From assembly GCA_016235065.1 (NCBI GenBank), contig JACRMB010000004.1:3629-67628 (forward strand): DNA of 64,000 nucleotides, given 5' to 3'. The notes below the pieces were generated by a model. The model did no database searches. It had not been told where the DNA came from and was given only the letters and a program-made list of their open reading frames with translations. Below are positions 3 through 44,800 of this stretch, in pieces (the stretch's first letter is position 1; the number at the start of each line of letters is the position of its first letter). This stretch comes from Actinomycetota bacterium. Its GTDB lineage: Bacteria; Actinomycetota; Thermoleophilia; BMS3ABIN01. A program made the translations under genes and the position numbers.

Positions 3-3000
3 TACACGACTGGTGTCCCGCTTTCGGTGCGTACCGGAGTCACTGTCAAGAACCTGACTGTATCCCAGTTCAACTACGGGATCTATCTGCTTTCGTCGAA
101 CTCGACCACACTCACCGGCAATACCGTTTCCAACAACGCCTTTGGGGTTTACGAGGTATTCTCGAACAACAGCCAGGTATTCAATAACAACTTCATCAGC
201 AACGGCATCCAGGCTTATGTGACCGGCGGCAGCGGTAACGTCTTCGATACGCCAAGCGGCGGTAACCACTGGAGCAATTACAGCACGCCAGGCCAGGGCT
301 GCGACGACAACAATGGCAACTTCGTCTGCGACGTCCAGTACACATTCACTGGCGGAATCGACCATATGCCCTGGAGAGACGCCGATGGCTGGAAATACAC
401 CCCGCCACCGGACTCGACTCCACCGAACATCACCAGCGTATTGCCAGCCGGGATAATCGAAACGAACTCTACGACGATCAGCATCGACTATAACGATCCG
501 GGAAGCAATATAAATCTGGCATCGATCTCAGTCACGCTTGATGGAGTGGCGCTTTCGGGATGCACTTCAAACCAGTCCAATACCAGTTGCCTGGTGACCG
601 GCGTGGCGCTGGGAGCCCATTCGATCGGCGGCACTCTGGAGGATAACCGTGGCAATGTCAGCCTTATAAACGGCGCCTTCAATTTCGTCGATACAACCGC
701 TCCTGCAGTAGGCACGGTTCTACCGGCGGGAACTGTCAATTCGACTTCGACGATGATCACTGCTGGTTATTCAGACGGGAGCGGTTCCGGCATCAATCCT
801 GCAACGGTAAGTGTGACCCTCGACGGTTCGCCGCTAGCTGGTTGTGCGATTGATTCGGGAAGTCTCAGCTGTGCCGTGTCAGGCCTGTCACAGGGTAACC
901 ATACAGCCGTTATCAGCGTAAGCGACGTCGCCGGCAACACCGGTACAGGCACCAGCAACTTCGCAGTGGACAGCCTGCCACCGTCAGTGTCCGCAGTATC
1001 ACCTTCCGGGACGATGACGACAGGGTCAGCGACGATCAGCGCCAGCTATTCTGACAGCCAGAGCCCGATCAACACCGGATCAGTGGTTGTTACGCTTGAT
1101 GGCACCAACCTTTCAGGATGTACGGTATCTGCCACTGGTGTCAGCTGCCAGGTCAGTAATCTGACAGTGGGTGCACATACGATCGGCGGTTCAGTCTCAG
1201 ACACCGCTGGCAACACCGCTCCCATCAGTGGCAGTTTCGTATTCTCCGACACCGTCGCTCCGACAGTAGCCAGTATCCTTCCTAGCGGAAGGATCACAAG
1301 CAATACGGCTACCCTGAGTGCAAGCTACAGCGATGGCACTGGCTCCGGCATCGACACGGGCACCGTTGCCGTGCTGCTGGATGGCAGTCCTGCAAGCGGC
1401 TGTGTTGCGGGTGCGGCGACGGTCAACTGTAACGTCAGCGGCCTGGCCGATGGCAGCCATACGCTTGCGGTCAGTGTCAATGACAGAGCGGGGAACACTG
1501 GCAGCGGAACCGGCTCCTTCACCGTGGACACGACGGGACCGGTTGTTACTCCGACTAAATACATCAGCGCCAGCGCCACCGGCGGCGACTGTCCCAGCAT
1601 CGGTGTCTGGGATGACGCGACCAAGACCTGTTTTCTCACTGGTGACTATTACTTCGCCAACAAGAACGGCATCCAGATCACAGCGAATGGAGTGACGCTT
1701 GATGGCAATGGCCACACGATATCCGGAAGCACGGCCTTCAACAGTGGCGTCTCGTATACGGTCAAGACTGGGGTCACGGTCAAGAACCTGACGGTGAAGT
1801 CGTTCAACTACGGCATCTACCAGGTCGCTTCGAACGGCAATACCATCACCGGCAACACCATCCTGTCTAACAAGAACGGCATATACATGTCGTCTTCGAG
1901 CAATAACACCATCTACGGGAATAGCATCAGCAGCAGTGTGACCCAACAGATAGTGATAGCTGGAGGAGCCGGCAACGTCTTCGATATGGCCGCACCGATA
2001 GGTGGCAACTACTGGAGCAACTTCGACACACCAGCAGAAGGCTGCAACGATCTCAACTTTGACGGTTTCTGCGACCTGCCGCTCTTATTCACAGGCGGCC
2101 AGGACAATCTTCCCAGGGTGAGCCCGCCTAACCAGTGGCTCGATATCACGCCTCCCAACGTGACCAGCGTGACGCCCTCAGGGACGATCAATGTCGATTC
2201 AACCAATATCAATATCAGCTACTTCGACATCGGTTCCGGCGTCGATACCAATACGGTTGTAGTGAGGCTTGATGGGACGACGCTGGCAGGCTGCGCGATA
2301 AGCGCCAGCAGCGCCAGCTGCCCGGTATCCGGGCTCGCCCAGGGCGCCCACACCATCAGCGGCTCGCTCGCTGACACTTCAGGCAACAGCGGTCTTATAA
2401 GCGGCAGTTTCATGGTGGAGATACTCACCGACGTCACACCGCCGGCAATAAGCAGCGTCCAGCCTTCAGGCACTATAACGACTTCAACAACTAACGTCAG
2501 CGCCAACTATACTGATTCCGGTTCAGGAATAAACAGCGCAACAGTTGCTGTTTATCTGGATGGAAGCCTGCGCGGCGGCTGCTCGGTGACCGCCAGCAGC
2601 GTCAACTGTCCCGTATCGGGTCTGGCTGACGGCGCCCACGGCATCAGCGTCAGCGTTTCTGATAACGCCGGCAACACCGGCACGGCAACTGGCTCGTTCA
2701 CAGTCTCCACCGTAGCGCCTGATACGACTCCGCCATCGGTGACCAGCGTATTGCCTTCGGGAATACAGACATCGACGAGCGCGACCATCACAGCCTATCT
2801 GAGCGACGCGGGCTCGGGAGTCAATCCCAGTTCCGTCGTCGCCAGGCTCGACGGAGTCGCCATGACCGGCTGCACCGCGACAGCCAGCTCGGTGAGCTGT
2901 CCGAAGACCGGCATCGGCCAGGGTGCTCATGCCATAAGTGTGACCGCTTCGGATAACGCCGGCAACAGCGGCACCGGCACTGGTTCATTCACGGTCGACT

Positions 3001-6000
3001 CGCTAGCGCCTTCGGTCACCGCCCTGTCGCCGACAGGCGCGCTGGCTTCACCCACTACGACCATATCCGCAAGTCTCTCAGACTCGGGTACCGGTATTAA
3101 TTCAGCAACCGCCCAAGTCTATGTCGAAGGCGGCACCGTCGGAACCTGCAACCGGACGGCCACGTCCGTCAGCTGCCAGGTATCCGGGATGGTCGACGGT
3201 ATCCACAACTACACGGTCACGGTCTCGGATATGGCTGGAAATACTGGAAGCGCTTCAGCCAGTCTGAATATCGATACCGTGGCTCCCGCGGTCTCCAATA
3301 TCCAGCCCTCGGGCACCATAACGACCTCGAGCGCGACCATAAGCGCCTACTATAGCGATACCGGCTCCGGGCTCAACATCTCGACCGCGGTAGTAACGCT
3401 CGACGGCACAGCGCTGACTGGCTGTACCCGTACTTTCTCCGGAGTCAGTTGCCCAGCCACGGGGCTCACGGACGGTATCCATAATATAAGCGTCAGTGTC
3501 CAGGACAATATCACCAACATGGGCACGGGCACCGGTTCGTTCACGGTAACGCTGCCTCAGGCTGACACGACAGCGCCTACTGTTACCAACGTGCAGCCAG
3601 GCGGCACTATTGCGACAGGTACAGCCACAATCAGTGCTTACTACAGCGATTCCGGATCGGGCATCAATAGTGCCACTGCAGCAGTGACTCTCGACGGGAC
3701 CCCGATTACTGGTTGCGTCGCATCTGCCAGCGCGGTCAGCTGCGATGCCATCGGCCTCTCCGAGGGCGCGCACAATATCACAGTCTCCGTCGCCGACAAT
3801 GCCGGGAACACTGGCACTGGCAGCGGCAGCTTCGTGGTCGACAGCGTGATACCGGTGGTAAGCAATGTGATGCCCAACCAGGCCACTAACTCCACGAGCG
3901 CTACGGTCAGCGCCTACTTCAACGACGGTTCCGGCACCGGCATCGACCCCGCTTCGGTGAGAGTCTATCTGGACGACGTACTGATGGCTGGTTGCGCGGT
4001 AAGCACTTCCGACGTCAGCTGCGCTGTCAGCGGTCTCACTGATGGATATCACTCCATCAGGGTGGATGTTCTGGACAATGCCGGCAACAGCGGCCACGGA
4101 ACTGACTCATTCCTGGTAGATACGACTATCCCGGTCATAAGCGACATCCAGCCGAGCGGCACTATCAGTACATCCGCCGCCACAGTAAGCGCGTATCTGA
4201 GCGACTCATGGAGTGACGTAAACGATACGAGCGTAGTTGTAATGCTCGATTCTGTCGCGATAACAGGATGTACGGCCACGAATACTTCCGTCAGCTGCCC
4301 GGTCACCGGCCTGGTTGACGGTTACCATACAATCGACATCTCCGTAGCTGATAACACCGGCAATACCGGTACAGGCACCGGAAGCTTCACGGTGGACACC
4401 ACAGTGCCGGACACGACGCCACCAGTGATCAATAATGTGATGCCGTCTGGCACGATTACGACGACAGGCGCCAACGTCAGCGCTTACCTCAGCGACACTG
4501 GCAGCGGCATCAACACCGCCTCGGTGAGCGTCCAGGTAGACTCCGTAGCCCTCACCGGATGCACGGTATCGGCCTCCAGCGTAAGCTGCGCCGCCACAGG
4601 CCTGGCCGAAGGCGCGCACAACATCAGCGTCACCGCCGCCGACAACGCCGGCAACTCAAGCACCAGCACCGGCAGCTTCACGGTAGACTCCATGAGCCCG
4701 ACCGTAAGCGGCCTGGCTCCGACAGGTCTCGTCAACTTGGCCGACCAGACAATAACCGCCAGCTACTCCGACTCGGGCACCGGCATTGACAGCTCCACCG
4801 CCCAGGTCTATATGGACTCCGGCGTGCTCAGCGGCTGCACAGCAACCGCAACCTCGATCAGCTGCCCGGCTGCAGGACTAGCCGAGGGAGCCCACAGCTA
4901 CACAGTGAGCGTCAGGGACACGGCCGGCAATACCGGCTCGGCTTCGGCCAGCTTCACGGTGGACTCGATCCGCCCGACGGCAGGCAATTTCGCTCCCCAG
5001 GGCTATCTGACCACGACCAGCGCCACGATCACTGCATATATCAGCGATAGCGGCAGTGGAATCGACACAGCGGCTGTCTGGGCTGCGGTCGACGGGGTCC
5101 AGCTCAGCGGCTGTACCGTAACCACATCATCAATATCCTGTCCGGCCACCGGGCTTGCGGAAGGCCATCACATCGTCAGCGTCCGCGTGCAGGATATGGC
5201 CAACAACGGCGACATATACTTCTGGGGTATAGATGTTGACTCCCTGGCGCCGTCCGTGACCGGCCTTTCACCTTATGGGTCGCTCGCTTCACCGATAACA
5301 CGGATATCAGCCAGCTTAAGTGACTCCGGTTCGGGAATAGACAGCGCTACCGCCCAGGTCTATGTAGAAGGCGGTACGGTCTCGAACTGCAGCGCGAGTG
5401 CCACTTCCATCAGTTGTGATGTAGCCGGCATGGCTGACGGCGTCCATTACTACACGGTCAGCGTCAGCGACCTGGCCGGCAACACCGGCACAGCCTCAGC
5501 CAGCCTGCATGTTGACACTGTGGCGCCGACAGTCAGCAATATCCAGCCCAGCGGTACTATCACAACCGATAACGCGACTATCAGCGCCTACTACAGTGAC
5601 GCCGGCGTCGGGCTCAACATATCGACCGCCGTGGTCACCCTGGACGGAACCGCGCTGACCGGCTGCACCCGGACTTTCACCGGAGTCAGCTGCCCGGCCA
5701 CCGGACTTGCCGATGGCGTGCATAACATCACTGTCAGCGTCCTTGATAACATCACCAACGTGGGCACCGGCACCGGCTCGTTCACCGTCGCCATTCCTCA
5801 GGCAGACACGACGGCGCCTTCGGTGACCAATGTCCAGCCAACGGGCACGGTAACGACGGGCACGGCTACGATCAGCGCTGATTACAGCGACGCCGGCAGC
5901 GGCATCAACGCTGCCACAGCCAGGGTATACCTGGACGGAACAGCGCTGACAGGCTGCACGGCTACCGCGACATCGGTTAGCTGTCCAGCATCGGGCCTGA

Positions 6001-7088
6001 CTGAGGCCGTTCATAATATCAGCGTCTCAATCGCTGACAACGCCGGCAACACCGGCACCGGCACCGGCTCGTTCACGGTGAATCTGCCTGACACGACGCC
6101 GCCTTCGGTGACGAACATCCTGCCGAGCGGCACCATAACGACCAGTGCGGCAACTGTCTACGCTTACTACAGCGATACTGACAGCGGCATCAACTCCGCC
6201 ACCGCAAAGGTCTACCTGGACGGCACGGCGTTAACCGGCTGTACAGCGACAGCAACCGGCGTCAGCTGCCCGGCAACGGGTCTCGCCAACGGCGTCCATA
6301 ACATCAGCGTCAGAGTCGCCGACAACGCCGGCAACACCGGCACAGGCACCGGTTCCTTCACGGTCAGCCTGCCGTCATGTACGACCGATTACACCGACGC
6401 CAGCGGCGCGTCCATCTCGGTCTACAGCGATTCGTCATATACGACCAAGGTCTGCCAGCAGACCCAGCTGACTCCAAACACGAACTACTACGTGCAGCTG
6501 ACACATCCGACGATGAACCTGTCGTCGGAAGGCACGAACAGGAACCGAATGAGGATGTACAACCTTATGGGAACCCAGGTGAACTACGGTGACGGCACGA
6601 ACGAGAAGACGTTCACCCAGCAGTCAGGCGGAGCACCGTACCGGTACCGCACGACCTTCCGGACTCCGTCCACGGCCGACATCTACACGCTGGAGCCCAG
6701 CCTGCGGAACAACGCCCAGACCAAGCAGGTCACGATATATGGATGGATGACCAAGGTCGGCAATTCAGCCAGCTATGTGGCTACCTATTCTGACGCCGCC
6801 TATTCGGTCTACACTGATACGTTCGCTCCTGGAGCCACGGTCTACGTGCAGATGTACAGCGCCAGCTTCAGCGACGGCACTCCGACCACGTCGGCTACTT
6901 CGATCAACAGCTACGACTTTGCCGCGGCCTCTACCGTGCTGTCGGAGAGCTCTGTGAGCAGGATCGCCTCAAAGACGTACAGGACCGCGTTCACGATGCC
7001 GAGCGGCACCGGAGACCGCGGATTCCGGCTCAGCATATCCAGCGGAAGTACACTGGCAAGACCTGAATTCCTGCTGAACAGGCAGTAA
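3..7088 (+). CDS. giant secreted surface protein, 5' partial at window edge: two parallel beta-helix modules each followed by arrays of ~95-aa Ig-like domains (about 20 copies), plus a distinct ~230-aa C-terminal domain
   Basis: ORF 27..7088 is open to the window start and its first residues (TGVTVKNLTVSQFNYGIY) repeat an internal segment (KTGVTVKNLTVKSFNYGIY, ~aa 570), so the true start lies upstream. Beta-helix signature NNxFxxNGIxxY/GNxIxxN; Ig-like unit PSGTIxTxxATISAxYSDxGSGIxxATxxVxLDGxxLxGCxxxxxxVSCxxxGLxxGxHxIxVxVxDxAGNxGxGxGSFxVD with two conserved Cys. Confidence 0.8.
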   Translation, partial: YTTGVPLSVRTGVTVKNLTVSQFNYGIYLLSSNSTTLTGNTVSNNAFGVYEVFSNNSQVFNNNFISNGIQAYVTGGSGNVFDTPSGGNHWSNYSTPGQGCDDNNGNFVCDVQYTFTGGIDHMPWRDADGWKYTPPPDSTPPNITSVLPAGIIETNSTTISIDYNDPGSNINLASISVTLDGVALSGCTSNQSNTSCLVTGVALGAHSIGGTLEDNRGNVSLINGAFNFVDTTAPAVGTVLPAGTVNSTSTMITAGYSDGSGSGINPATVSVTLDGSPLAGCAIDSGSLSCAVSGLSQGNHTAVISVSDVAGNTGTGTSNFAVDSLPPSVSAVSPSGTMTTGSATISASYSDSQSPINTGSVVVTLDGTNLSGCTVSATGVSCQVSNLTVGAHTIGGSVSDTAGNTAPISGSFVFSDTVAPTVASILPSGRITSNTATLSASYSDGTGSGIDTGTVAVLLDGSPASGCVAGAATVNCNVSGLADGSHTLAVSVNDRAGNTGSGTGSFTVDTTGPVVTPTKYISASATGGDCPSIGVWDDATKTCFLTGDYYFANKNGIQITANGVTLDGNGHTISGSTAFNSGVSYTVKTGVTVKNLTVKSFNYGIYQVASNGNTITGNTILSNKNGIYMSSSSNNTIYGNSISSSVTQQIVIAGGAGNVFDMAAPIGGNYWSNFDTPAEGCNDLNFDGFCDLPLLFTGGQDNLPRVSPPNQWLDITPPNVTSVTPSGTINVDSTNINISYFDIGSGVDTNTVVVRLDGTTLAGCAISASSASCPVSGLAQGAHTISGSLADTSGNSGLISGSFMVEILTDVTPPAISSVQPSGTITTSTTNVSANYTDSGSGINSATVAVYLDGSLRGGCSVTASSVNCPVSGLADGAHGISVSVSDNAGNTGTATGSFTVSTVAPDTTPPSVTSVLPSGIQTSTSATITAYLSDAGSGVNPSSVVARLDGVAMTGCTATASSVSCPKTGIGQGAHAISVTASDNAGNSGTGTGSFTVDSLAPSVTALSPTGALASPTTTISASLSDSGTGINSATAQVYVEGGTVGTCNRTATSVSCQVSGMVDGIHNYTVTVSDMAGNTGSASASLNIDTVAPAVSNIQPSGTITTSSATISAYYSDTGSGLNISTAVVTLDGTALTGCTRTFSGVSCPATGLTDGIHNISVSVQDNITNMGTGTGSFTVTLPQADTTAPTVTNVQPGGTIATGTATISAYYSDSGSGINSATAAVTLDGTPITGCVASASAVSCDAIGLSEGAHNITVSVADNAGNTGTGSGSFVVDSVIPVVSNVMPNQATNSTSATVSAYFNDGSGTGIDPASVRVYLDDVLMAGCAVSTSDVSCAVSGLTDGYHSIRVDVLDNAGNSGHGTDSFLVDTTIPVISDIQPSGTISTSAATVSAYLSDSWSDVNDTSVVVMLDSVAITGCTATNTSVSCPVTGLVDGYHTIDISVADNTGNTGTGTGSFTVDTTVPDTTPPVINNVMPSGTITTTGANVSAYLSDTGSGINTASVSVQVDSVALTGCTVSASSVSCAATGLAEGAHNISVTAADNAGNSSTSTGSFTVDSMSPTVSGLAPTGLVNLADQTITASYSDSGTGIDSSTAQVYMDSGVLSGCTATATSISCPAAGLAEGAHSYTVSVRDTAGNTGSASASFTVDSIRPTAGNFAPQGYLTTTSATITAYISDSGSGIDTAAVWAAVDGVQLSGCTVTTSSISCPATGLAEGHHIVSVRVQDMANNGDIYFWGIDVDSLAPSVTGLSPYGSLASPITRISASLSDSGSGIDSATAQVYVEGGTVSNCSASATSISCDVAGMADGVHYYTVSVSDLAGNTGTASASLHVDTVAPTVSNIQPSGTITTDNATISAYYSDAGVGLNISTAVVTLDGTALTGCTRTFTGVSCPATGLADGVHNITVSVLDNITNVGTGTGSFTVAIPQADTTAPSVTNVQPTGTVTTGTATISADYSDAGSGINAATARVYLDGTALTGCTATATSVSCPASGLTEAVHNISVSIADNAGNTGTGTGSFTVNLPDTTPPSVTNILPSGTITTSAATVYAYYSDTDSGINSATAKVYLDGTALTGCTATATGVSCPATGLANGVHNISVRVADNAGNTGTGTGSFTVSLPSCTTDYTDASGASISVYSDSSYTTKVCQQTQLTPNTNYYVQLTHPTMNLSSEGTNRNRMRMYNLMGTQVNYGDGTNEKTFTQQSGGAPYRYRTTFRTPSTADIYTLEPSLRNNAQTKQVTIYGWMTKVGNSASYVATYSDAAYSVYTDTFAPGATVYVQMYSASFSDGTPTTSATSINSYDFAAASTVLSESSVSRIASKTYRTAFTMPSGTGDRGFRLSISSGSTLARPEFLLNRQ
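2995..3700. repeat. intragenic segmental duplication, copy A (~0.7 kb, two Ig-like domains)
   Basis: Encoded segment SLAPSVTALSPTGALASP...GSFTVTLPQADTTAPTVTNVQPGG is near-identical in protein and closely similar in DNA to copy B. Confidence 0.6.
5236..5945. repeat. intragenic segmental duplication, copy B
   Basis: Encoded segment SLAPSVTGLSPYGSLASP...GSFTVAIPQADTTAPSVTNVQPTG; long runs of identical nucleotides with copy A. Confidence 0.6.
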
Positions 7089-7152
7089 CAGGCAGGAAGT
7101 CGGGCATTTCCCGACCAGCGAGAATCTGGCCGGAGAACAGGATGAATCACGA

Positions 7153-7188
7153 GGCCCCGCCGTCAGGCGGGGCCTCTTTCTTGCTGTT
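7153..7188 (+). terminator. rho-independent terminator after the giant gene
   Basis: GGCCCCGCC-gtca-GGCGGGGCC perfect 9-bp stem followed by TCTTTCTTGCTGTT, 65 nt after the stop codon. Confidence 0.55.
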
Positions 7189-7257
7189 CTGAAACCATTT
7201 GTTCGTTTCCGCGTCTAACCGGGTAACACTAAACAGTCAAGCCATCGGAGGAAGACC

Positions 7258-7674
7258 TTGGAGACATCCGCAGCCATAAGTTTCGAAGTCCATACGGGCC
7301 AGCCGTTCGACCAGGCCATCGAAAGCCTGACGAAGGCACTCAAGGCAGAAAGCTTCGGCATCCTCACCCGCATCGACGTCCACACTACTCTCAAGGAAAA
7401 GCTGGACAAGGATTTTCGCAAGTACGCCATCATCGGAGCCTGTAACCCGCCGCTCGCGCACCGCGCCCTCGAGCACCAGGCGGAAGTAGGTTTGATGCTT
7501 CCCTGCAATATCACTGTCGAGGAAGACCCCAAAGGCGGTTCCATAGTCCGCATAGGCGATCCCGGAGCCATGTTGAAGGGTTTTGGAATGGATCAGGACC
7601 CGGTGCTCGCCGAGGTTGGAGCCGAAGCCCGCAAGCGGCTTGAGCGGGTGGCCAGAGCACTGGAAGCTACATAA
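7258..7674 (+). CDS. DUF302 domain protein
   Basis: TTG start preceded by GGAGGAAG; motifs ILTRIDVHTTLKEKL, YAIIGACNPPLAHRAL and LMLPCNITVEED typical of DUF302. Confidence 0.65.
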   Translation: METSAAISFEVHTGQPFDQAIESLTKALKAESFGILTRIDVHTTLKEKLDKDFRKYAIIGACNPPLAHRALEHQAEVGLMLPCNITVEEDPKGGSIVRIGDPGAMLKGFGMDQDPVLAEVGAEARKRLERVARALEAT

Positions 7675-8809
7675 GCTCCCGCACAAAGAAATCGACTATC
7701 ATCGCGTTGATCTCCTGGCGTGACGGGTCGATCTCTCCACCCTGGGGAACAAAAGCGTGTCCTGCGTTCTTCACCATCACCAGCGTGGCCGGCACTCCGG
7801 CAGCCTTCAGCAGGTCATAGAGCCCCTGGGACTGGTCCGGCGGCACGAGCATGTCTGAGTCGCCCTGCAGTATCAGGAACGGTGGATCGTCCGCGGTGAC
7901 GTAGGTGACCGGGCTAGCGATCTTCAGGATCTCAGAGCCGCTGTCGCTGGTGCCGAACACCCTTGCCCCCAGTGCCTTGCCGATGGCGCCACCCTCGAAT
8001 TCCCGGGTCAGATCCGAGGGGCCGAACATGTCCACGACCGCCTGTACCCGGCTTGATTCATCCTGGTTCCCGCACGATCCCTCGAGACCGTCGTCGTCAT
8101 CCATGACTCCCAGCAGCGATACCAGATGGCCGCCCGCACTGCCGCCCCAGGCGCCGATCCTATCGGGGTCAAGGGCATACTTGCCAGCATTAGCCCGAAG
8201 ATAGCGCAACGCGCATTTAACGTCCTCGATCTGTGCCGGGAACCGGTATTCGGGCGCGAGTCGATAATTGACCGACACCACCAGGAAGCCGGCCTCCTGC
8301 AGGCTGGGGATGGTAGTGGTGCCGGCTCCGTCCTGCTTGTCGCCTTTGGTCCAGCCGCCTCCGTGGACATACATCACCACCGGCACCGGCCCGGCTGCCT
8401 TTAACGGATAATAGATATCCATCTTCAGGTCGACGCCGTTAGCCCTGCCGTAGGTCACGTCACGTTCCACGGTGCCAAGCTTTGCGGGGTCCAGCGGTAC
8501 AAAAGTGCTCGCCGCATCGCCGTCAGATCCGGTGGTCGAAGCGGTCTCTTTGCCAGTCTCAGAATTGCTGCCCGGGCTATCAGTGCCGGCGTCCGCGGTA
8601 GCGCCGGATCCATCGCCGGACAGAACGCCTGCGGAGCTTCTATCTGCGTCAGGATCTCCGCAGCCTGTAACCAGCATTATCAGTACCAGCATCATGAGCA
8701 CCAGCAGCACGACTGCAAGGGAGGTAAGGGCCGTGAATAACCTTCCCGCACGGAGGCCACGCAAAAGTCTCCGCCGGATGATACCGCCCGATGTCAGACC
8801 GGCACTCAC
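7667..8809 (-). CDS. alpha/beta-hydrolase fold esterase/lipase, lipoprotein
   Basis: MYVHGGGWTKGDK (HGGG oxyanion motif) and GGSAGGHL (GxSxG nucleophile elbow); N-terminal hydrophobic segment ending in lipobox LVTGC. Confidence 0.7.
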   Translation of the reverse strand: MSAGLTSGGIIRRRLLRGLRAGRLFTALTSLAVVLLVLMMLVLIMLVTGCGDPDADRSSAGVLSGDGSGATADAGTDSPGSNSETGKETASTTGSDGDAASTFVPLDPAKLGTVERDVTYGRANGVDLKMDIYYPLKAAGPVPVVMYVHGGGWTKGDKQDGAGTTTIPSLQEAGFLVVSVNYRLAPEYRFPAQIEDVKCALRYLRANAGKYALDPDRIGAWGGSAGGHLVSLLGVMDDDDGLEGSCGNQDESSRVQAVVDMFGPSDLTREFEGGAIGKALGARVFGTSDSGSEILKIASPVTYVTADDPPFLILQGDSDMLVPPDQSQGLYDLLKAAGVPATLVMVKNAGHAFVPQGGEIDPSRQEINAMIVDFFVRELM

Positions 8810-10143
8810 TGGCCACCCGCCATCGTCACGATATCCTCGGAAGTGACTACCCGCAGGTTAGCGCTGGCCCAGGCGACCATCTCCTCGTATGCCGCCCAGA
8901 TGGCTTCCTGCTCTTCGGCGGAGCGCACGGTGGAGCTCTCCGGTCTGGTCAGATCGAAGGGAGGCGACAGCGGCCGCGACTTGTCGCCACCGGTGAAGTA
9001 GTAAGCAGTCCAGCCTTCCGGCCCGCTGCGGGCGAAGTTGTTCTCATGGATAAGCGAGGTGATGATCGGCGGGCGGCCGACCGCCGCCGTGTTCCAGCCT
9101 GCGAGACGCTCCTGCAGGTAAGCGGTGGGATCATATTCTCCGGCATTGGGAGTCGTCAGCATGTTCCACCAGAAAGGTTCTTCACCTTTTTTGGACTGAG
9201 CACTTCCCGTGGCATCCCAGCGGGTGATGCTGAAGTCGCTTGGCCGCACCAGCAGGCCGTTCACCCAGACGAACGGCTCTTCCAGGTCCGTCCCTTCCTC
9301 ATGGTAAAGGAGGGTCATGTGTGCGCCGAGGTTGGCATACAGCTGCTGGCCGGCAGCCTTGATCTCGGGGCTCTTGCTGGGAACCGGCGCACAGACAGGG
9401 TCACGCCCGAAAGTGTCAGCAACATATGAATAGCCACCGGGCTGATCGCGCAGGAGGCCGCCAGTCGTCATATCGAGGGCGAAAGTCTCATAGTCTTGGA
9501 GCGTCGCCGCCAGCGCCGTTCCATCCAGGCCTTGCAGGCTCTGGTCGAACCCGGCATAGAGGGGGTGGGGAGGACGCACGTGATAACTGATCGTCATCTC
9601 GCTGTTCTTCAGTCGCTCGATCACATCGGGGCGTTCCCGGCTGTAAGCCTGCACGATCGGCGCAGTCAGATAGAAGTCGCCGCGAACGCCGTATTTCTCA
9701 TAGATGCCGATCAGCCTCAGGATCGTGTCAGCGCTCTCATCCACATGCACGGTGTCATGGACGTTGATCACGAATGTGATATAGCCGGGAGCGGTCTTAT
9801 CGAAGGTCGTGTAGGTGACGCCGCCACCAGCTCCGCCGTCAGTAACGCCATCCATCCCGGCCGATTCGGTGGCGCTGCCGGTCTCATCGGAAACCGCATC
9901 GCTGGTTCCGTCCGGTCCCGCGGCAACATCCGTGCTCGGACCGCCATCCGCCTCTCTGTCGCAGGCGAGAGCTGACAGCAGCAGCATCGCGCTTACCAGA
10001 GACACGAGCAGGAAAAACGTGATGCGCAGCCCGGCGCAAGTACCGCCAACCGTGCTGATACCGCCGGCCGTCACGCTGCTATCGCCACACAGCCGGACTC
10101 TGCGTATTCTGCTCTTCCCGCTCTCTCTGCTCACTCTGATCAC
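8806..10143 (-). CDS. secreted lipoprotein, putative polysaccharide-deacetylase-like hydrolase (paralog 1)
   Basis: GTG start; lipobox LSALAC; TFVINVHDTVHVDES...ISYHVRPPHP His-rich motifs; paralogous to the downstream gene. Family assignment is tentative. Confidence 0.45.
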   Translation of the reverse strand: MIRVSRESGKSRIRRVRLCGDSSVTAGGISTVGGTCAGLRITFFLLVSLVSAMLLLSALACDREADGGPSTDVAAGPDGTSDAVSDETGSATESAGMDGVTDGGAGGGVTYTTFDKTAPGYITFVINVHDTVHVDESADTILRLIGIYEKYGVRGDFYLTAPIVQAYSRERPDVIERLKNSEMTISYHVRPPHPLYAGFDQSLQGLDGTALAATLQDYETFALDMTTGGLLRDQPGGYSYVADTFGRDPVCAPVPSKSPEIKAAGQQLYANLGAHMTLLYHEEGTDLEEPFVWVNGLLVRPSDFSITRWDATGSAQSKKGEEPFWWNMLTTPNAGEYDPTAYLQERLAGWNTAAVGRPPIITSLIHENNFARSGPEGWTAYYFTGGDKSRPLSPPFDLTRPESSTVRSAEEQEAIWAAYEEMVAWASANLRVVTSEDIVTMAGGQ

Positions 10144-11321
10144 GTTTTCGGGTTGACGCCGGGATTGGTCTGCTCCCAGGCTTCATAGGAGTCGGCCATC
10201 TCCGAGAAGGTGGCCCACTGCACTCTTCCGGACGCCACCAGCGGATCGACAACTTCTGCCAGGAACCGGTCGATGACCTCGAACGGATGCTCCGGCTCGC
10301 CGCGGAACTCACCCGGATGGACCGTGAAGTGGAAGACGCTGACGCGGGAAGGATCTGCCTCAGCCTCGGCCAGCGACTGCATCAGGCTCTCTTTGAGAAA
10401 ATCGAAGTATGCCTGGTCGCCGCCCATAGCCCTGGCGGATCCGCCATAGTCGTTCCGTGAGTATGAGCCCTGGGGCAGGTAGACCACGGGACCGTCAGGA
10501 TCATGCGCGGCGAACTGTGAGACGTCGTTGCCGTTCGAGCCTCCGGCAGGCCGCCAGGGATTGATGCCTATCAGGTCGCTGACGGTTGTCTGCTCGTTCG
10601 GATTCTTCCAGTCGCTGTTGACATCGAGGCCGGCGCAGCTGGCCGCGTCGATGAGGCCGGGGTAGAGGTTGCCGCCGCTCCAGTAACGGATGTCTACTTC
10701 ACTGCCGGCGGCCTGCCTGATGAAACCGACCTCCTCCTTCATCACCGCGCACCAGGTCTCTGCAGGCAGTTCGTTGCCGTTCTTGCCCAGATGCGCGTCT
10801 TCATGAAAGTGAAGCGCGATCTCGTGGCCGCTGGCCGCCAGGTCGGAGAGCACGGGATCACCGCTACTGGCCGCGACTGTTGTGAAAGGGGTCTGCGCCT
10901 GCACGGTCATGCTGCCCTGGTGCTTCTCGACGATGGCGGCGACGGATTTTATATCTTCCACGTGCCGCTGGAAGAACTCAGGGTTGTTATAGTCCCCCTT
11001 GTTCGTCCAGGTCGGGCCCGCGGCATTGCCGCCCACGATCGGACTGGGCGAAGCGCCCCGCGGCTCGATATGCATGCCGATACCGAACAGGAGAACGCCG
11101 GCGGACGATGAGGTCGTGGCGCCGGTCGACGTCGATCCCACGGCTGATCCTTCACTGTCTCCAGTTTGCGAGAGACTCTCGTCAGCCGAATCACCCACAG
11201 TCCCTGTGGTGACGATTCCCGCATTCCCATCATCCTGTCCGTTCATAGAACAGGCGACTGAAAGCGAGAGCATGGAAGCGAGCAGCAATATGCCTACTGA
11301 TATCAGAATAATGCGCCGCAT
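10140..11321 (-). CDS. secreted lipoprotein, putative deacetylase/hydrolase-like (paralog 2)
   Basis: AGGAG RBS 10 nt upstream of ATG; signal peptide with lipobox LSVAC; EIALHFHEDAH motif. Confidence 0.45.
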   Translation of the reverse strand: MRRIILISVGILLLASMLSLSVACSMNGQDDGNAGIVTTGTVGDSADESLSQTGDSEGSAVGSTSTGATTSSSAGVLLFGIGMHIEPRGASPSPIVGGNAAGPTWTNKGDYNNPEFFQRHVEDIKSVAAIVEKHQGSMTVQAQTPFTTVAASSGDPVLSDLAASGHEIALHFHEDAHLGKNGNELPAETWCAVMKEEVGFIRQAAGSEVDIRYWSGGNLYPGLIDAASCAGLDVNSDWKNPNEQTTVSDLIGINPWRPAGGSNGNDVSQFAAHDPDGPVVYLPQGSYSRNDYGGSARAMGGDQAYFDFLKESLMQSLAEAEADPSRVSVFHFTVHPGEFRGEPEHPFEVIDRFLAEVVDPLVASGRVQWATFSEMADSYEAWEQTNPGVNPKT

Positions 11322-11552
11322 CTTTCATCACTCCTGACAACTGCTTCGCTTTTTAGCTTCCGTCACTATCATTATTGGTATTTACGGTTATCCCCGTGTA
11401 ACGGGAATGTAAAATCTCTGTAAGTGATTGCGGGCCCGCGACACCTGGGAAACTTGACTAATCCTCCGCTGTGCCAATATGCTCAGGACGAATTCTGTAA
11501 TGGGATCCCGGATGGAATGGATCGGGAAAGACGGGCAGGAGCAGATTCACGT

Positions 11553-12038
11553 ATGGCTGATAGTAAAGGCACAAATCCAGCGAGGAAATGGCGGCCGTCG
11601 CCGCCTGAACTGATCGTCCTGTTCGAAAAGCTCATCGAGGCCGTGCCCGGCGCTCAACCACGCAAGATGTTCGGATACCCGTGCGCATTCGTGAACGGAA
11701 ACATGTTTACAGGGCTGCACCAGGAGAACCTGATGCTGAGGCTGTCTGAAGAGGACCGCGCTACACTGCTCAGCATCAAGGGAGCGGCGCCATTCGAGCC
11801 GATGCCCGGCCGGGCGATGAAGGAATATGTCACCGTGCCGGATTCGATGCTGAAGAAACAAGCTGAGCTGAAGAAGTGGCTGGCAAGGTCATTCGGGTAC
11901 GCGAACTCGCTGCCACCCAAAGTAAAAAAGCAGCCGGCTGTGACAAAGAATTCTGCAGGGAAGAATCCAGTGGCGAAGAAGCAGCCCGCTGCGAAGAAAC
12001 AGGCGAAGAAGCCGGCCGGACCGGCAAAAAAGAGATAA
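11553..12038 (+). CDS. TfoX N-terminal domain-like protein with lysine-rich C-terminal tail
   Basis: RKMFGYPCAFVNGNMFTGLHQENLMLRLSEEDRATLL matches the TfoX_N pattern as I recall it; ATG at 11553 preferred over the longer ORF-track start at 11424; KKQPAAKKQAKKPAGPAKKR tail. Confidence 0.5.
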   Translation: MADSKGTNPARKWRPSPPELIVLFEKLIEAVPGAQPRKMFGYPCAFVNGNMFTGLHQENLMLRLSEEDRATLLSIKGAAPFEPMPGRAMKEYVTVPDSMLKKQAELKKWLARSFGYANSLPPKVKKQPAVTKNSAGKNPVAKKQPAAKKQAKKPAGPAKKR

Positions 12039-12057
12039 ACGACAAGGAGCCAGGCAG

Positions 12058-12549
12058 ATGCCATCATTCGATATCGTAAACAAGGTTGACCTGCAGGAAG
12101 TCGACAACGCCCTCAACAACACCCGCAAGATGACTCAGACGCGTTATGATTTCCGTGGGTCGAAGACCGAGATCGAGCTGAACCGCAAGGACAGCAAGAT
12201 CAGCATCCTCACCGAAGACAGCATGAAGATGAAGGCCATCGAGAATGAGCTGATCTCAAATCTGGTCAAGCGCAAGGTCGATGCGAAATCAGTGAAGTTT
12301 GGCGAGCCGGAGCGGGCTGCCGGCGATATGGTCAAGCTCGACGCGGAGATCCTCGCCGGCATCGACAAGGAAACCGCCCGCAAGATCGTAAAGATGATCA
12401 AGGAAACGAAGATGAAGGTCCAGGCGGCGATCCAGGAAGACCAGGTGCGTGTGACCGGCAAGAAGATTGACGACCTGCAGTCAGTCATTGCCCTGCTAAA
12501 GGAAAAAGACCTGGGCATGCCGCTGCAGTACATCAACATGCGCGACTGA
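12058..12549 (+). CDS. yajQ: YajQ family nucleotide-binding protein (UPF0234; cyclic-di-GMP binding in some species)
   Basis: MPSFDIVNKVDLQEVDNA...RYDFRG...KIVKMIKETKMKVQAAIQEDQVRVTGKKIDDLQSVIALL is collinear with E. coli YajQ; AGGAG RBS. Confidence 0.9.
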   Translation: MPSFDIVNKVDLQEVDNALNNTRKMTQTRYDFRGSKTEIELNRKDSKISILTEDSMKMKAIENELISNLVKRKVDAKSVKFGEPERAAGDMVKLDAEILAGIDKETARKIVKMIKETKMKVQAAIQEDQVRVTGKKIDDLQSVIALLKEKDLGMPLQYINMRD

Positions 12550-12594
12550 AACTCAGGGACACCATAGCTTTATTAGCAGGGATAAAAGGACAGC

Positions 12595-13395
12595 CTAAAC
12601 CGGCCGCATCGTCCCGAAGAACATCTGCCACGCCAGCGCCGACTTGGCCACCAGGCTGAGGATGATATACACCCTCTCACCGTAAAGGTAGTCTTTCCAC
12701 GGCCCGATCTGCCGGTACTGCAGCCACTGGTTCACGGCGAAGATGTTGAAGAAGATGAACAGCGAAACCATGATGCCGTAGACGAAGTCAGGTACTGATG
12801 TATCCGGGTACTGGTTGGACCCGATCGTGTAGAGCGCTATCACCACCCAGGGGATGATCCCCGCGAAGCAGCCGAAATAGAACGCGGTCCAGCTTGTCTT
12901 TTCCGTAGTCTGGTTATGCAGCTCCATCATGTAGCCAAAGAAGATCATGCAGGCGTTGATGCAGAAGATGAGGATCAGGCTCGAAAGGTCGTAGACGCCC
13001 ACCAACATGGCGATCAGCACTATCATGATCGACGAGCTCAGCGAATACTCCCACCAGCGCGCCTTGTTGATGTGCTGCTTGAGGTTTGCCACATACCAGT
13101 TGAATCCGAACGAAGCCAGGATGAAGTGCGCCATCGCCGACAGCAGCAGGAAGATGGCAACCATGGGTGCGATGCGCAGGGTATAAGGGTCCTGAAGATT
13201 CTGGACCAGTCTGCCGGAGGAGACATCGAATTTCAGGTAGATAGTCGACACCGGCAGTGAGAAGCTGGTGCTCAGCCACAGCATCAGCACACCCTGGCCC
13301 AGGTGCAGGCAGCCCATGATGAAGTTGAAGCGGCGAAGGCCGCCGTAGGTTATTTTACTGGCGGGCGCGGCGTCTGTAGCTAAGGCGATATTCAT
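12595..13395 (-). CDS. heliorhodopsin (7-TM retinal protein)
   Basis: Strong match to heliorhodopsin 48C12 as recalled: WWEYSLSSSIMIVLIA (TM3 with Glu counterion), FGCFAGIIPWV, VPDFVYGIMVSLFIFFN, GERVYIILSLVAKSALAWQMF (TM7 with retinal-binding Lys); GGGAGG RBS 5 nt upstream of ATG. Confidence 0.85.
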   Translation of the reverse strand: MNIALATDAAPASKITYGGLRRFNFIMGCLHLGQGVLMLWLSTSFSLPVSTIYLKFDVSSGRLVQNLQDPYTLRIAPMVAIFLLLSAMAHFILASFGFNWYVANLKQHINKARWWEYSLSSSIMIVLIAMLVGVYDLSSLILIFCINACMIFFGYMMELHNQTTEKTSWTAFYFGCFAGIIPWVVIALYTIGSNQYPDTSVPDFVYGIMVSLFIFFNIFAVNQWLQYRQIGPWKDYLYGERVYIILSLVAKSALAWQMFFGTMRPV

Positions 13396-13552: not shown

Positions 13553-14869
13553 TCACTTCACCTCACCCATGAACATGGGGATATTGATCCGCTGCCGCTC
13601 CGTCTCGCCCTTGAACAGCTCCTCCCGCCGCGCCGGCACGTCGCCGCGGTCGCCCAGGTGCTGCGCGAATTTATTAGCAGTGAAGCTCGAGCCCAAAAAC
13701 AGCGTGTGTTTGCCGTATTTCACCCGCACGCCGTCCACCGCCTCATAGACTCGCGCCAGCCGTTCGATGCGCGCCGTCACGCCGAAGAGGTCCGGCTGAG
13801 TGATGACGTCCTCGGTGAGCTTCAACAGAACCACGCCGGTCGACCGGTACAGCTTCGTCGGCTTGAACAGCCGCTGGAACACCGGCTCCAGCGCCGCCAT
13901 GATCTCATGGGGGAAGGCGGTGGGCCGCGAGAACTTCACCTTGGCGCCGACGCCGTGGAAATCCTGGGTCTTGAGGAAGCAGACCGCCTCCCGCGCCGCC
14001 AGCTTGTAGCGCCGCGCCTTCATGGTGGCGTTCTCCACGTTCTTGGATAGTTGGGCGAAGACGAACTCCGGGTCGCTGGACGGCGGCGTGAAGGTCTTCA
14101 CTTTCTGGATGGTGTAATAGCTCTCTTTTTCCTCGGTGTCGAGCCCCATGACCATGCGCCCGTTCAGCTCCTGCCAGGTCTCGTAGAATGGCTTGCTGAA
14201 GTTCGCTTTCACCCAGTCCTCGTCGCGCCGGGCGAAGTCGAGCGCCGTGGTGATGCCGAACTTGGCGAGATAGGCGGTGGTCTGCGGCCCGATGCCCCAG
14301 ACCTTCTCCACCGGCATGCCGCGCAGGAACTCGTGGATGTCGCGCCCGGGGATCACCGTCAGCCCCGAAGGCTTCTGCCATTTGGAGGCGATCTTGGCGA
14401 TGGTCTTGTTGGGCGCGAGCCCGGTGGAGAAGGTGAAACCGAAGGCCTCGTCCAGCTCCTCCTTCATCGCCCTGGCGATGGCCCGGTAGCCCATGCGCAG
14501 CGGCCGCTGCATGCCGGTGATATCGGCGAAGCACTCGTCGATGCCGTATTCCTCCACATCGGGCGTGTAGCGCCGCACTATGGCGAAGAAGCGTTTCGAC
14601 AGCAGGCTGTAAGTCTCGTAATCGGAGGGAAGGAAGACCGCGTCGGGGCAGAGCTTACGCACCTCGGAGAGCCGCATGGCTCGCACGACGCCACGGGCCT
14701 TGGCCTCGTAGCTCATGGAGGCGACGATGTTGCGCTCCTTGCCGGTGATCACAGGGATACCCTGGAGCTTGGGGTTCCGTGATTGCTCACACGACGCAAA
14801 AAAAGCGTCGGCGTCGATGTGGATGACCGCCCGGGGGAAGGAGCGGATGGAGAGGGGGTTGTCACCCAT
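13553..14869 (-). CDS. Y-family (UmuC/DinB-like) translesion DNA polymerase
   Basis: VIHIDADAFFASCEQSRNP (catalytic Asp motif), IDECFADITG, NIVASMSYEAKARGV; start 1 nt after the lexA stop, so translationally coupled. Confidence 0.85.
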   Translation of the reverse strand: MGDNPLSIRSFPRAVIHIDADAFFASCEQSRNPKLQGIPVITGKERNIVASMSYEAKARGVVRAMRLSEVRKLCPDAVFLPSDYETYSLLSKRFFAIVRRYTPDVEEYGIDECFADITGMQRPLRMGYRAIARAMKEELDEAFGFTFSTGLAPNKTIAKIASKWQKPSGLTVIPGRDIHEFLRGMPVEKVWGIGPQTTAYLAKFGITTALDFARRDEDWVKANFSKPFYETWQELNGRMVMGLDTEEKESYYTIQKVKTFTPPSSDPEFVFAQLSKNVENATMKARRYKLAAREAVCFLKTQDFHGVGAKVKFSRPTAFPHEIMAALEPVFQRLFKPTKLYRSTGVVLLKLTEDVITQPDLFGVTARIERLARVYEAVDGVRVKYGKHTLFLGSSFTANKFAQHLGDRGDVPARREELFKGETERQRINIPMFMGEVK

Positions 14870-14870
14870 C

Positions 14871-15443
14871 TCAATACTTCCGAATGACCGCTCGCACGAT
14901 CGCCGCGACCCGCAGCTCGTTCTCCGGCGTGATCGGCCCGAACCTGCTATTGGCCGCTTCCAGCCAGACTTTGCCGCCGCGTTTGCGGTAATACTTCATG
15001 GTCCACTCGCCGTCGACCTCGGCGATGATGATGTCGCCGTCCTTCTCGGTGACGCCCCGTTCCACCAGCACCATGTCGCCGGGCATGATGCCGGCGTCGA
15101 CCATCGACTCGCCCTGCACCTTGAGCAGGTAGGTCTGCTCCGGGCGCTTGATGAGGAACTCCTCCAGGCTCATGGTGTCCAGCAGCTCCTCCTCGGCGGG
15201 AGAGGGCCAGCCGGCCTCGACCGTGCCGAGCTGGGGCACGGCGTTGAAGCGCCGCCCCGGCAGCAGTTTGCCGGTCTCGTCGCGCTCCACGAAGCCCTGT
15301 TCCACCAGCCGGTTCACCAGTTTGTAGGTGGTTCCCTTTGAGCGCAGGCCAGCCGCCCGGGCGATCTCGGCATGGCTGGGCATGCGCCGGTTGGCCCGGT
15401 AGAAGGCGATGATCTTATCCAGATGTTTTGGTGTCTTTTTCAT
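14871..15443 (-). CDS. lexA: LexA repressor (S24 peptidase)
   Basis: N-terminal wHTH (HAEIARAAGLRSKGTTYKLVNRLVEQGFVER), cleavage-site region VEAG, catalytic Ser in VQGESMVDAGI and Lys in WTMKYY. Confidence 0.9.
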   Translation of the reverse strand: MKKTPKHLDKIIAFYRANRRMPSHAEIARAAGLRSKGTTYKLVNRLVEQGFVERDETGKLLPGRRFNAVPQLGTVEAGWPSPAEEELLDTMSLEEFLIKRPEQTYLLKVQGESMVDAGIMPGDMVLVERGVTEKDGDIIIAEVDGEWTMKYYRKRGGKVWLEAANSRFGPITPENELRVAAIVRAVIRKY

Positions 15444-41832: not shown

Positions 41833-44800
41833 ATGATAGCAAAGACATCTATTCGCTGTGTTACTGCGGCAGTGCTGTTCATGTTTCTTGTTCTGCTGTA
41901 CGTATCCAGCGTAATGGCAGCGCCCGGGCCGGATATCAGCGGGCTTGTTTCTCCCACACACGCTGATGAGAACACCTGGTACTCGAACAACGATCCTTCG
42001 TTTTCCTGGAGCTCCGCGTTTGAAACCGGCCTGGCAGGTTCGTATTCGACGCCGGGCCATTCATATGATGTCGCTGTTTCGGGCATATATGCATATATTG
42101 CGGATGGGGGTTACGGACTTCGTATAATCAACATCTCCAATCCGGCAAGCCCGACGCTCGCAGGCTTTTACGACACGCCCGCCGCCGCCAGCGGTCTGGA
42201 CATCTCCGGCAGCTATGCTTATGTGGCCGACGATACTAGCCTGCAGATAATCAACATCTCCAACCCGGCCAGCCCGACTCTGGCTGGATCACTTGCGATG
42301 TCCAGCGCCGTCGACGTTGCCGTTTCAGGCGACTTCGCTTACGTCGCCAGCTATGGCTACGGATTGAGAGTCATAGATATTTCGAACCCGGCCAGCCCGG
42401 CGCTCAGGGGAACATTCAATACGCCGGGCATCGCCGTAGGAGTCGCTCTTTCGGGAAATCATGCGTATGTGGCCGACAACAACTCCGGCCTACAGATAAT
42501 CGATGTCACCGATCCGGACAATCCGGCGTTCGCGGGTGCATACAACCCAGGCTATTCATTCTTAGCGGCCAGAGTTTCCGGGACGCTGGCTTATATGGCC
42601 GCAGGCAGTTCGGGCCTTGTCATCGTCGACATCTCTGATCCGGCTAATACGTCACTGGCTGGAGCATACGATACACCGGGCAGTGCTCTCGATGTTGCTG
42701 TTTCAGGAATCTATGCATATATGGCGGATTATTCCTCCGGCCTGCAGATCCTGGATATCTCAAACCCGGCAAATCCGACGCTGGCTGGCTCCTACGCCAC
42801 GTTGCCGGCCAGTTATGCAGAAGACGTCGATGTCTCAGGCAGTTTTGCATACCTGAGCGACTATACCGTCGGCCTGACGATCGTTGAAGCGTCTACGGCC
42901 ACCGGTTATTCCTATATATTCGACCAGAATCCGGCAACGGTACCGGATACTGTTTCCGAGGGGGCCGATACCAGCAAGGCCTACACTGATACCGGCGATG
43001 GCATCTGGTATTTTCATGTAAGGGCAGTGGATCCCCTGGGTAACTGGGGCGCGGCCAGCCATCGTAAAGCGCAGATCGACACCGGAGCACCGGTTATCAC
43101 CAACATCCTGCCTTCGGGCACCATAACCACCGGCGATCCCGCTACCGTACAGGCAGACCTGAGCGACAGCATCTCCGGCATCGACGTCGCCACGGGTTCC
43201 GTCTCAGTTGACGGTACTGAACTGACAGGCTGCGTCGTCAACAGCTCGCTGGTGAGCTGCGATACCAGCTCGGCCGGTTTCGCTGAGGGGGCACACAGCA
43301 TATCGGTGACCGCCTATGACAACGCGGGTAACCCCAATACGGCCACCGGATCCTTCTCAGTCGACTCCATCGCTCCCTCTGTGACCGGCATTCAGCCTGG
43401 TGGCACGATCAACACCACTTCGACGACCATAAGCGCTGATTATAGTGATTCCGGTTCCGGCATCGACTCCGCGACTGCGACAGTCTACCTGGATTCAGTG
43501 CTTGTTACAGGATGCACGGCTGATGCAGTTAGCGTCAGCTGCCCGGTCACGGGGCTGTCTGTAGGAGCCCATTCGATCACAGTGTACGTCAGTGACAATG
43601 CGGGCAACACCGGATCGGGGTCAGGCAGCTTCACCATGACCCTGAGCCGGGACTACTACTGGGGACGTTATGACGGCACCAACAGTCTGGACTGGATCCT
43701 GCTGGGGAATCCGCCTGGTTCATCAGGGAACCTGACATTCGATCTTTATATCAGCACGGATGAGCAGTCACTGGCGCCATTCGTCATACCCGGCTATGGC
43801 GTGGGTGAGGTGCCGCCGGGCCAGTCGATAACTCCGATGTTCAACATGCCACCGGCGGGCCCGGTCAAAGCCTTGTCCACTACGGGCGGTCAGGCTATCG
43901 CTTCCCAGCGCATCCTCTGGAAAAGCAGGTATTTCGAAGAGGTGCCGGGGATCGAGGCAGGAAGCTTGTCCAGCCATTATTACTGGACCTGGTATGACCA
44001 GTTCTCACCAGGATTCTCCCAGGATGAGATCATCGTCGTCAATACCAACACGGAGCCGGTCATGGTGGAGATCTCCTTTACTGATGTGGCTCATCCACCG
44101 GCGGCCGATCCTGTGGACGACACTTTCCCGTTGCAGCCAGCTGGGACTCCCGGAGGCACGGATACCCTGAGACAGAGTTACCCGGGCAAGATGGGCGGCC
44201 CTGTGGAAGTCAAGGCATGGCTGGCTGGCGGTACATACGAGAGCGATCCCAGGAATGTGGTAGCAACCCAGCGGGTGATCAAGGACCAGGGTGCCGCTAC
44301 GGAGCATCTAAACGAGGTCCCCGGCATCCCGGCAGATGATCTCACCAGCGATTACTGGTGGACCTGGTACGACTGGAACAGCTCGGGAGCTTCCAACTGG
44401 GTACTGGTCTCAAATCCCGGCGCTGAAGCAGTCCATGTGGATATCTCATTCAGGAACGACCAGACAGGGACGATTGAGACCCTGGATGCCGACCTGCCCC
44501 CGGCAGCTCCCGGTGTCGCCCCATGGACGCCCAGCTTCGCCGGCAAAAAAGGTGGGCCTGTTGAAGTCAGGGCGTCGCTCGCCAGCGACCATAACCAGCC
44601 GCGTGACGTCATCGCCTCCCAACGATCGGTCTGGACCACATTCTTCGAAGAGGTGCCGGGCTTCGCGGCCTCGCAGCTATCGCCCCGCTATCTATGGACC
44701 TGGTATGACTGGAACAGCGCCGGCTCACAGAACTGGGTGATGGTAGCCAATCCGACCGCGGATACGGTTCACTCCGAGATCTCCTTCAAGGACTCGACTA

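Follow-up and report, generated by a model that had tools for sequence, protein, structure and literature searches.

The stretch of DNA analysed here (referred to below as the window) comprises 64,000 nucleotides (nt) of contig JACRMB010000004.1 in the Actinomycetota assembly GCA_016235065.1, and opens inside a gene for a giant modular protein made of beta-helix modules and immunoglobulin-like (Ig) units. The gene model is sound, short of 99 N-terminal codons only, and what looked like a recent, collapse-prone repeat within it is ancient and selectively maintained. The gene is unexceptional: it is assembled correctly, belongs to a known class of giant surface proteins, and is already in GenBank under a generic automatic name; its product is, with some reservation, probably an adhesin-like secreted surface fibre of an uncultured actinobacterium related to Thermoleophilia, a function read from domain families alone.

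The internal duplication

An earlier, sequence-only reading of the window had described segments 2995-3700 and 5236-5945 as a recent duplication, near-identical at the DNA level and standing out from the general domain periodicity. The last part of this description holds: 2241 nt is the best in-frame offset in the gene (77.7% identity over a 300-nt ungapped window, against 74.3% for the runner-up offset, 285, and a median per-offset maximum of 36%), and the colinear run of Ig units 8-10 against 16-18 has a mean nt identity of 70.8%, compared with 54.7 +/- 3.8% for all three-pair runs (z = 4.3). The near-identity does not hold: an alignment of the two segments has 525 identical columns out of 722 (73%) and 28 with gaps; third codon positions agree at 42-48%, over a background of 38%; and the longest exact repeat in the whole gene, at 6036 and 6321, is 23 bp. 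The similarity spans three whole Ig units, with copy A at 2997-3839 (Ig8-Ig10) and copy B at 5238-6089 (Ig16-Ig18), both on the + strand; from the first pair of units to the third, amino acid (aa) identity is 75, 87 and 74% and nt identity 68, 76 and 68% (71% over the three units).

The age claimed for the duplication is contradicted in the same way. Nei-Gojobori synonymous divergence (dS) between the copies is 1.62, 1.30 and 1.58 for the three unit pairs, near saturation (the background proportion of synonymous differences, pS, is 0.70), with omega at 0.08-0.15. Both copies are also present in the ortholog P0002, a protein of 2362 aa encoded at a syntenic locus (L003) in another Thermoleophilia metagenome-assembled genome (MAG; GCA_054640535.1), where aa identity between orthologous units is 85-92%, compared with 75-87% between paralogous ones: Ig9, for example, shares 92% of its residues with its ortholog and 87% with Ig17. 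Likewise, dS between orthologs is about 0.3-1.2, compared with 1.30-1.62 between the copies. The occurrence of both copies in L003, together with the closer match between orthologous than between paralogous units, places the duplication before the split of the two lineages; the higher identity of the orthologs also shows that no gene conversion has taken place recently, and copies A and B have gone unhomogenised since that split. The Ig8-10/Ig16-18 duplication is thus old, fixed and under purifying selection, neither a recent expansion nor an assembly artefact.

Independent assemblies bear on the second of these. Logan contigs from two separate runs match the window at 100%, one (L001, SRR12113397) over 6036-13076 and the other (L002, SRR12113407) over 4506-10683; the latter includes part of Ig13 and everything from there to Ig19, and so reproduces copy B and its junctions. 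Both end inside the Ig array, L002 at 4506 and L001 at 6036, exactly where the 23-bp repeat starts, and the MAG contigs of both the window and L003 begin inside the paralog that lies upstream (see below). Short-read assemblies have been seen to fragment in these arrays rather than collapse. Collapse or miscounting, which had been suspected here, is unlikely, because no exact repeat exceeds 23 bp, the copies are only about 71-73% identical, and L002 reproduces copy B. The copy number shown is probably to be trusted, as far as this kind of evidence goes.

Could the duplication nevertheless be a recent one of about 0.7 kb, with near-identical copies, ongoing recombination and a possible collapse or miscount? 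The rank of offset 2241 as the strongest off-diagonal in the gene, the breaks of both Logan contigs within the array and of both MAG contigs in the paralog, and a 100%-identical three-domain repeat in a relative (P0003, below) would all fit. The divergence between the copies, their joint presence in L003 with orthologs closer than paralogs, and the 100% match of L002, assembled independently from a different run, over copy B with its junctions refute it as far as DNA comparison can, and we give it very little credence.

Variation in the Ig array

The 19 Ig units were counted by a self-search with one unit, followed by a hidden Markov model (HMM) built from the units; the sequence-only reading had put them at about 20, each with two cysteines, and was right about the cysteines and one too high in its estimate. 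Nucleotide identity among the units ranges from 43 to 76%, with a mean of 54.8 +/- 5.9% over 171 domain pairs. The youngest duplication in the gene is the tandem pair Ig18/Ig19 (5763-6365, + strand; period 285, 2.1 copies and 76% matches in Tandem Repeats Finder), at 76% nt identity and a dS of 0.96. Conserved acidic motifs, YSDxGSGI[DN] and DxAGN, are visible in the unit alignment. A query of two Ig units against PDB sequences gave chance-level matches only.

The ortholog has 18 Ig units to the 19 found here. Ig1-9 and Ig14-19 pair one-to-one at 77-93% aa identity, and the two loci are colinear by blastn over 3-3667 (81.9%) and 4676-7184 (85.7%) only. Between these lies a central variable, non-colinear block on the + strand, from mid-Ig10 to Ig13 (3668-4675), which is 1008 nt long here and 714 nt in L003; the difference of 294 nt is one Ig unit and accounts for the one-domain gap in length. 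On its left, the block begins (3668) about where the first of the two segments originally flagged ends (3700). None of Ig10-13 can be paired one-to-one with a unit of L003 (42-59% identity), and their best matches in ten family proteins reach only 53-73%, so that no source was found among these; an origin by copying from the upstream paralog was considered and rejected, identity there being at most 71%.

In the wider family, the count of Ig units runs from 7 to 29 and that of beta-helix modules from 2 to 4. In one of them (P0003, 3291 aa, partial, from a Thermoleophilia MAG), Ig19-21 and Ig25-27 are 100% identical in aa sequence; the repeat is either genuine and recent or a product of faulty assembly in that record. 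Array length in the family changes through gain and loss of whole Ig units and replacement of the central block. The earlier proposal that such repeats drive length variation by recombination is therefore apt for the family over evolutionary time, with its 18 versus 19 units and the repeat in P0003, and inapt for the flagged duplication as a recent event.

The giant gene is the downstream member of a tandem pair of paralogs. The top match of a profile of its C-terminal domain is a partial protein (P0121; MBI5870348.1, HZB44_05230) on the same 83,828-bp contig, with an accession adjacent to that of the giant protein; it lies upstream of window base 1, and its architecture ends in five Ig units, a C-terminal domain, a further Ig unit and a second C-terminal domain. 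Identity to the giant protein is 83% for its last Ig unit (against Ig19) and 68-72% for its C-terminal domains (against the one in the window). The same layout, a gene ending in the C-terminal domain followed by a giant gene of beta-helix, Ig and C-terminal parts, is also found at L003 (2-2269) and at a Gaiellales locus (L004, 1-1458). Whole-unit gain and loss, central-block replacement and tandem paralogs together document how these arrays evolve in an uncultured actinobacterial lineage.

Gene model and domain architecture

The + strand frame is open from window base 3 without an internal stop, through 2361 codons, to a stop codon at 7086-7088 (coding fragment 3-7088). Its translation, which ends in ARPEFLLNRQ, is identical across 2361 of 2361 residues to residues 100-2460 of a GenBank protein of 2460 aa found by homolog search (P0001; MBI5870349.1), annotated as [quoted passage not shown] and encoded on the 83,828-bp contig. 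The start codon and signal peptide therefore lie 297 nt (99 codons) upstream of the window, and the GTG at position 27 given by the ORF lister is a mechanical start only. The expectation of a gene that starts before the window is borne out by these 99 further residues, and no start codon with a signal peptide was found when the window edge was inspected. The opening codons do echo an internal beta-helix motif, as had been noticed (11-125 against 1745-1859, 70% identical), and the NosD match enters in mid-profile. The 99 residues are known from the protein record only and not from upstream DNA: an attempt at upstream extension, with the first 40 bases of the window as an exact 40-mer against metagenome contigs, gave no match.

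The first 36 residues of the full protein resemble a signal peptide. Read from the sequence by eye, it runs MGSQ...LLLLGLVAAQSAQA/ASAK; the N-terminus MGSQHGNSAALKALKSFSILIVLLLLGLVAAQSAQA/ASAK combines a basic n-region with a hydrophobic core and an AxA site, contains neither a cysteine nor a twin arginine, and is most simply taken as a Sec signal peptide. At the other end of the gene, a hairpin with a T-rich tail resembling an intrinsic terminator (7151-7186, + strand; hairpin 7151-7176, an 11-bp stem with 10 G-C pairs) lies 63 nt past the stop codon. The full protein is acidic and rich in serine and threonine.

The order of modules is beta-helix 1, Ig1-4, beta-helix 2, Ig5-19 and a 237-residue C-terminal domain, all on the + strand. 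Beta-helix module 1, of the NosD/CASH type, is cut by the window edge, so that only its C-terminal two-thirds are present (3-410; window-protein residues 1-136, with a Pfam NosD match at residues 4-94 covering profile positions 107-211 of 212); the full module is residues 37-235 of the GenBank protein. Ig1-Ig4 follow at 411-1535 and Ig5-Ig19 at 2142-6371 (window-protein residues 137-511, n = 4, and 714-2123, n = 15), each set being recognised by Pfam (Big_13), the unit HMM and cysteine spacing, and the second also by NCBIfam (Ca_tandemer). Between them lies beta-helix module 2 (1536-2141; residues 512-713), of the same NosD/CASH type, with two conserved cysteine pairs, one in an N-terminal cap and one in an EGCxDxNxDGxCD loop. 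The tail without a Pfam match (residues 2124-2361) contains the C-terminal domain (6372-7085), unannotated and rare, with two beta-sandwich subdomains and one cysteine pair.

Scores over the whole protein are above cut-offs: Big_13 (PF19077) at 239 bits (cut-off 27) in 11 stretches, Ca_tandemer (NF033510) at 100.9 (cut-off 50), para_beta_helix at 47.5 (cut-off 19.45), and NosD and Beta_helix at 89 and 42 bits, both passing. The view of this as a giant modular beta-helix/Ig-like secreted protein with two beta-helix modules is thus upheld by its Pfam and NCBIfam domains and signal-peptide-like N-terminus. All 48 cysteines of the full protein are paired: 19 pairs are in the Ig units, every one of which has exactly two cysteines at an invariant 8-residue spacing (C-x8-C), two pairs are in each beta-helix module, and one is in the C-terminal domain. 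A motif search of the full protein found neither CXXCH nor LPXTG.

An AlphaFold2 model of a beta-helix module has a mean predicted local distance difference test score (pLDDT) of 75 and is good over the first ~130 residues. The best structural and sequence neighbour of the modules is NosD: the PDB sequence match is weak (E 0.013), with the motifs GNYWSxY and DxNxDG in common. Across 20 aligned family modules the invariant columns are mostly glycine, asparagine, aromatic residues and cysteine (the two pairs), giving the motif GGNYW...EGCxDxNxDGxCD; the invariant aspartates sit in the C-terminal loop motif.

The C-terminal domain

Nearly all family members end in the C-terminal domain, which is also one of the most strongly conserved stretches of the protein (92.5% identity to the ortholog, dS 0.34); it is found at the end of P0002, P0004, P0009 (twice) and P0010, as well as in the upstream paralog. 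A model from a six-sequence alignment consists of two beta-sandwiches (pLDDT 90.9; predicted template modelling score, pTM, 0.87). A word-index homolog search missed the domain even in the giant protein and its ortholog, a limit of the search method, and an exhaustive profile search of 1.84 billion representative proteins was used instead: 43 proteins matched at E <= 1e-3, 15 of them at E <= 1e-30. Nearly all of the 43 have Big_13 or other Ig domains, and two are cytochromes, one a cytochrome c protein (P0122) and the other a 2779-aa multihaem MtrC-like protein with the domain at its end (P0132). Against genome contigs, a single-sequence query gave no match, while an alignment query found five distant loci, none of them from the source genome (two in a Gaiellales MAG, two in "Actinomycetes bacterium" MAGs, and one in "Bacterium BMS3Abin01"); the alignment gave no match in metagenome contigs.

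The domain defines a small, little-described family, and its sharing with extracellular cytochromes is likewise little described. One unlikely idea is that it is a lineage-specific surface-display or anchoring module of uncultured Thermoleophilia/Gaiellales-like Actinomycetota, and that the proteins bearing it form an extracellular fibre system. If so, the system would place its glycan-binding heads (and redox modules, in relatives) well away from the cell, and the exposed surface would vary through recombination, for which the central Ig block would be a hot-spot. With its confident predicted fold, this family is the part of the protein most worth following up, because it is common to giant extracellular cytochromes.

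Function and alternatives

As a surface adhesin, the protein would be exported by the Sec pathway and would mature into a long modular fibre: a beta-helix head, four Ig units, a second head, fifteen Ig units and a double beta-sandwich. The Ig units would form the stalk, Big_13/Ca_tandemer repeats being of the extender type of giant adhesins; each would be stapled by its C-x8-C pair, presumably a disulfide, and by analogy the stalk may be stiffened by Ca2+. The beta-helix modules would be the working parts, most probably binding glycans rather than cleaving them, and the C-terminal domain would serve in attachment or assembly. Several points weigh against this picture. The signal peptide was judged from the sequence by eye; no LPXTG, SLH, transmembrane tail or lipobox was recognised in the giant protein; attachment to the cell is assumed, and the protein may instead be released; the C-terminal part of the beta-helix model is of low confidence; and, among the structural neighbours of the beta-helix, polysaccharide lyases, hydrolases and epimerases are numerous.

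The last of these raises the possibility of a surface-displayed polysaccharide-degrading enzyme, with a catalytic, pectin-lyase-like beta-helix (a lyase, hydrolase or epimerase) and the Ig array as its spacer. The modules do have the right-handed parallel beta-helix fold of such enzymes; they are, however, short (~200 aa, compared with 300-700 aa for the neighbouring enzymes), their best neighbour is the non-enzymatic NosD, no catalytic (CAZy-type) family was matched in the Pfam scan of the protein, and the invariant residues of the 20 aligned modules are structural, with no conserved acidic or basic cluster in the helix body, all of which makes an enzyme unlikely. Slightly less likely still is a structural envelope protein (for instance a subunit of an S-layer or a sheath) in place of an adhesin: the acidic, Ser/Thr-rich composition and the tandem paralogs would suit one, but no SLH or other known S-layer anchoring domain is present, and length and domain count vary between close relatives, which would be unusual for lattice-forming subunits. 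More improbable than either is a haem-free scaffold or attachment partner in an extracellular electron-transfer or mineral-contact apparatus. Four relatives (P0012-P0014 and P0017) combine NosD, Big_13 and CXXCH cytochrome domains, and the C-terminal domain both occurs in the cytochrome c protein and closes the multihaem one; the giant protein itself has no CXXCH, there are no cytochrome genes among the neighbours scanned, and common modular domains need not mean a common pathway. All three alternatives (stalked enzyme, S-layer-like subunit and electron-transfer scaffold) are less well supported than the adhesin model.

Neighbouring genes

Downstream, the window and L003 have in common genes for DUF302, a BD-FAE esterase, two unknown proteins, YajQ, heliorhodopsin, DinB and LexA. 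The two unknown genes (8806-11321, - strand; 445 and 393 aa, without Pfam matches) form an apparent operon with the esterase. The heliorhodopsin gene (12595-13395, - strand; Pfam E 9e-103) lies 5.5 kb downstream of the giant gene. Genes for a LexA-like repressor (Peptidase_S24 and HTH domains) and a DinB/IMS-family polymerase are next to each other (13553-15443, - strand) and form an SOS-type pair. One gene, for a TfoX_N-domain protein (11424-12038, + strand), is absent from the otherwise colinear L003, where the gap is 144 nt compared with 606 nt here. Further along the window, two genes for large proteins each have two or three copies of the same type of Ig unit, one with LVIVD repeats (41833-45021, + strand) and one with a PD40 beta-propeller (46417-49542, - strand); the latter lies in a stretch of low G+C (46-50 kb, 0.51-0.52, compared with ~0.58 elsewhere).

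Comparison with known systems

Several well-known types of surface protein were considered and rejected. An RTX, type I-secreted adhesin of the LapA, MpIBP or SiiE type is not indicated, there being no HemolysinCabind match in Pfam, a signal-peptide-like N-terminus and a beta-sandwich C-terminus; for an LPXTG (sortase)-anchored adhesin, neither the LPxTG regular expression nor any NCBIfam sorting-signal model at E <= 0.01 gave a match; and for an SLH-anchored S-layer protein, Pfam and NCBIfam scans found no SLH family.

The beta-helix modules have a counterpart in the beta-solenoid binding regions of Gram-positive adhesins (PMC5866549). Those of Lactobacillus reuteri SRRP-BR and Streptococcus pneumoniae PfbA are LPXTG-anchored proteins with one binding region each, whereas the protein described here has a pair of short NosD-type modules, lacks LPXTG and ends in a different C-terminal domain. 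NosD itself, a periplasmic protein of the NosDFY system for maturation of N2O reductase, has a His-Met-Met copper site and docks on NosY (PMC13452462). The modules here are about half its length, pass only the domain-level Pfam model, and fall far below the cut-off of the family model (TIGR04247 NosD_copper_fam, 66.2 bits against 300); no histidine or methionine is among the invariant or near-invariant columns of the 20 aligned modules, and so there is no conserved His-Met-Met copper site, and no nos genes (nosZ, nosF or nosY among them) were found in the 26 window ORFs scanned, a subset of those in the window. A canonical NosD was rejected on these grounds. Closer in kind are the secreted NosD-like/CASH proteins lacking the copper site and NosY contacts, for which adhesion or sugar binding has been proposed (PMC13452462): like the protein here, they have signal peptides, no copper-site motif or NosY contacts, and adhesion-type domains alongside. 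The published examples are much smaller, viral or archaeal, and have dockerin or S-layer neighbours, whereas the protein here is a giant of actinobacterial origin whose 19 Big_13 units are accompanied by a distinct C-terminal domain.

The nearest counterparts in function are giant adhesins whose Ig-like extenders are stabilised by Ca2+, such as Marinomonas primoryensis MpAFP/MpIBP; as in these, a very long array of Ig-like beta-sandwich repeats (~92-104 residues each) accounts for most of the protein and flanks ligand-binding modules; the Ig units here also score above the cut-off of the Ca_tandemer family (NF033510). MpAFP too has a beta-helical ligand-binding region, and its ~120 repeats are identical at the DNA level, so that they cannot be counted from sequence (PMC3492233). 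The present protein differs in its apparent N-terminal Sec signal peptide, in having no detected RTX (HemolysinCabind) repeats, and in the cysteine pair of each unit. It also differs in the repeats themselves: those of MpAFP are alike to the last base, whereas the units here are only 43-76% identical in nt sequence, which is the opposite situation.

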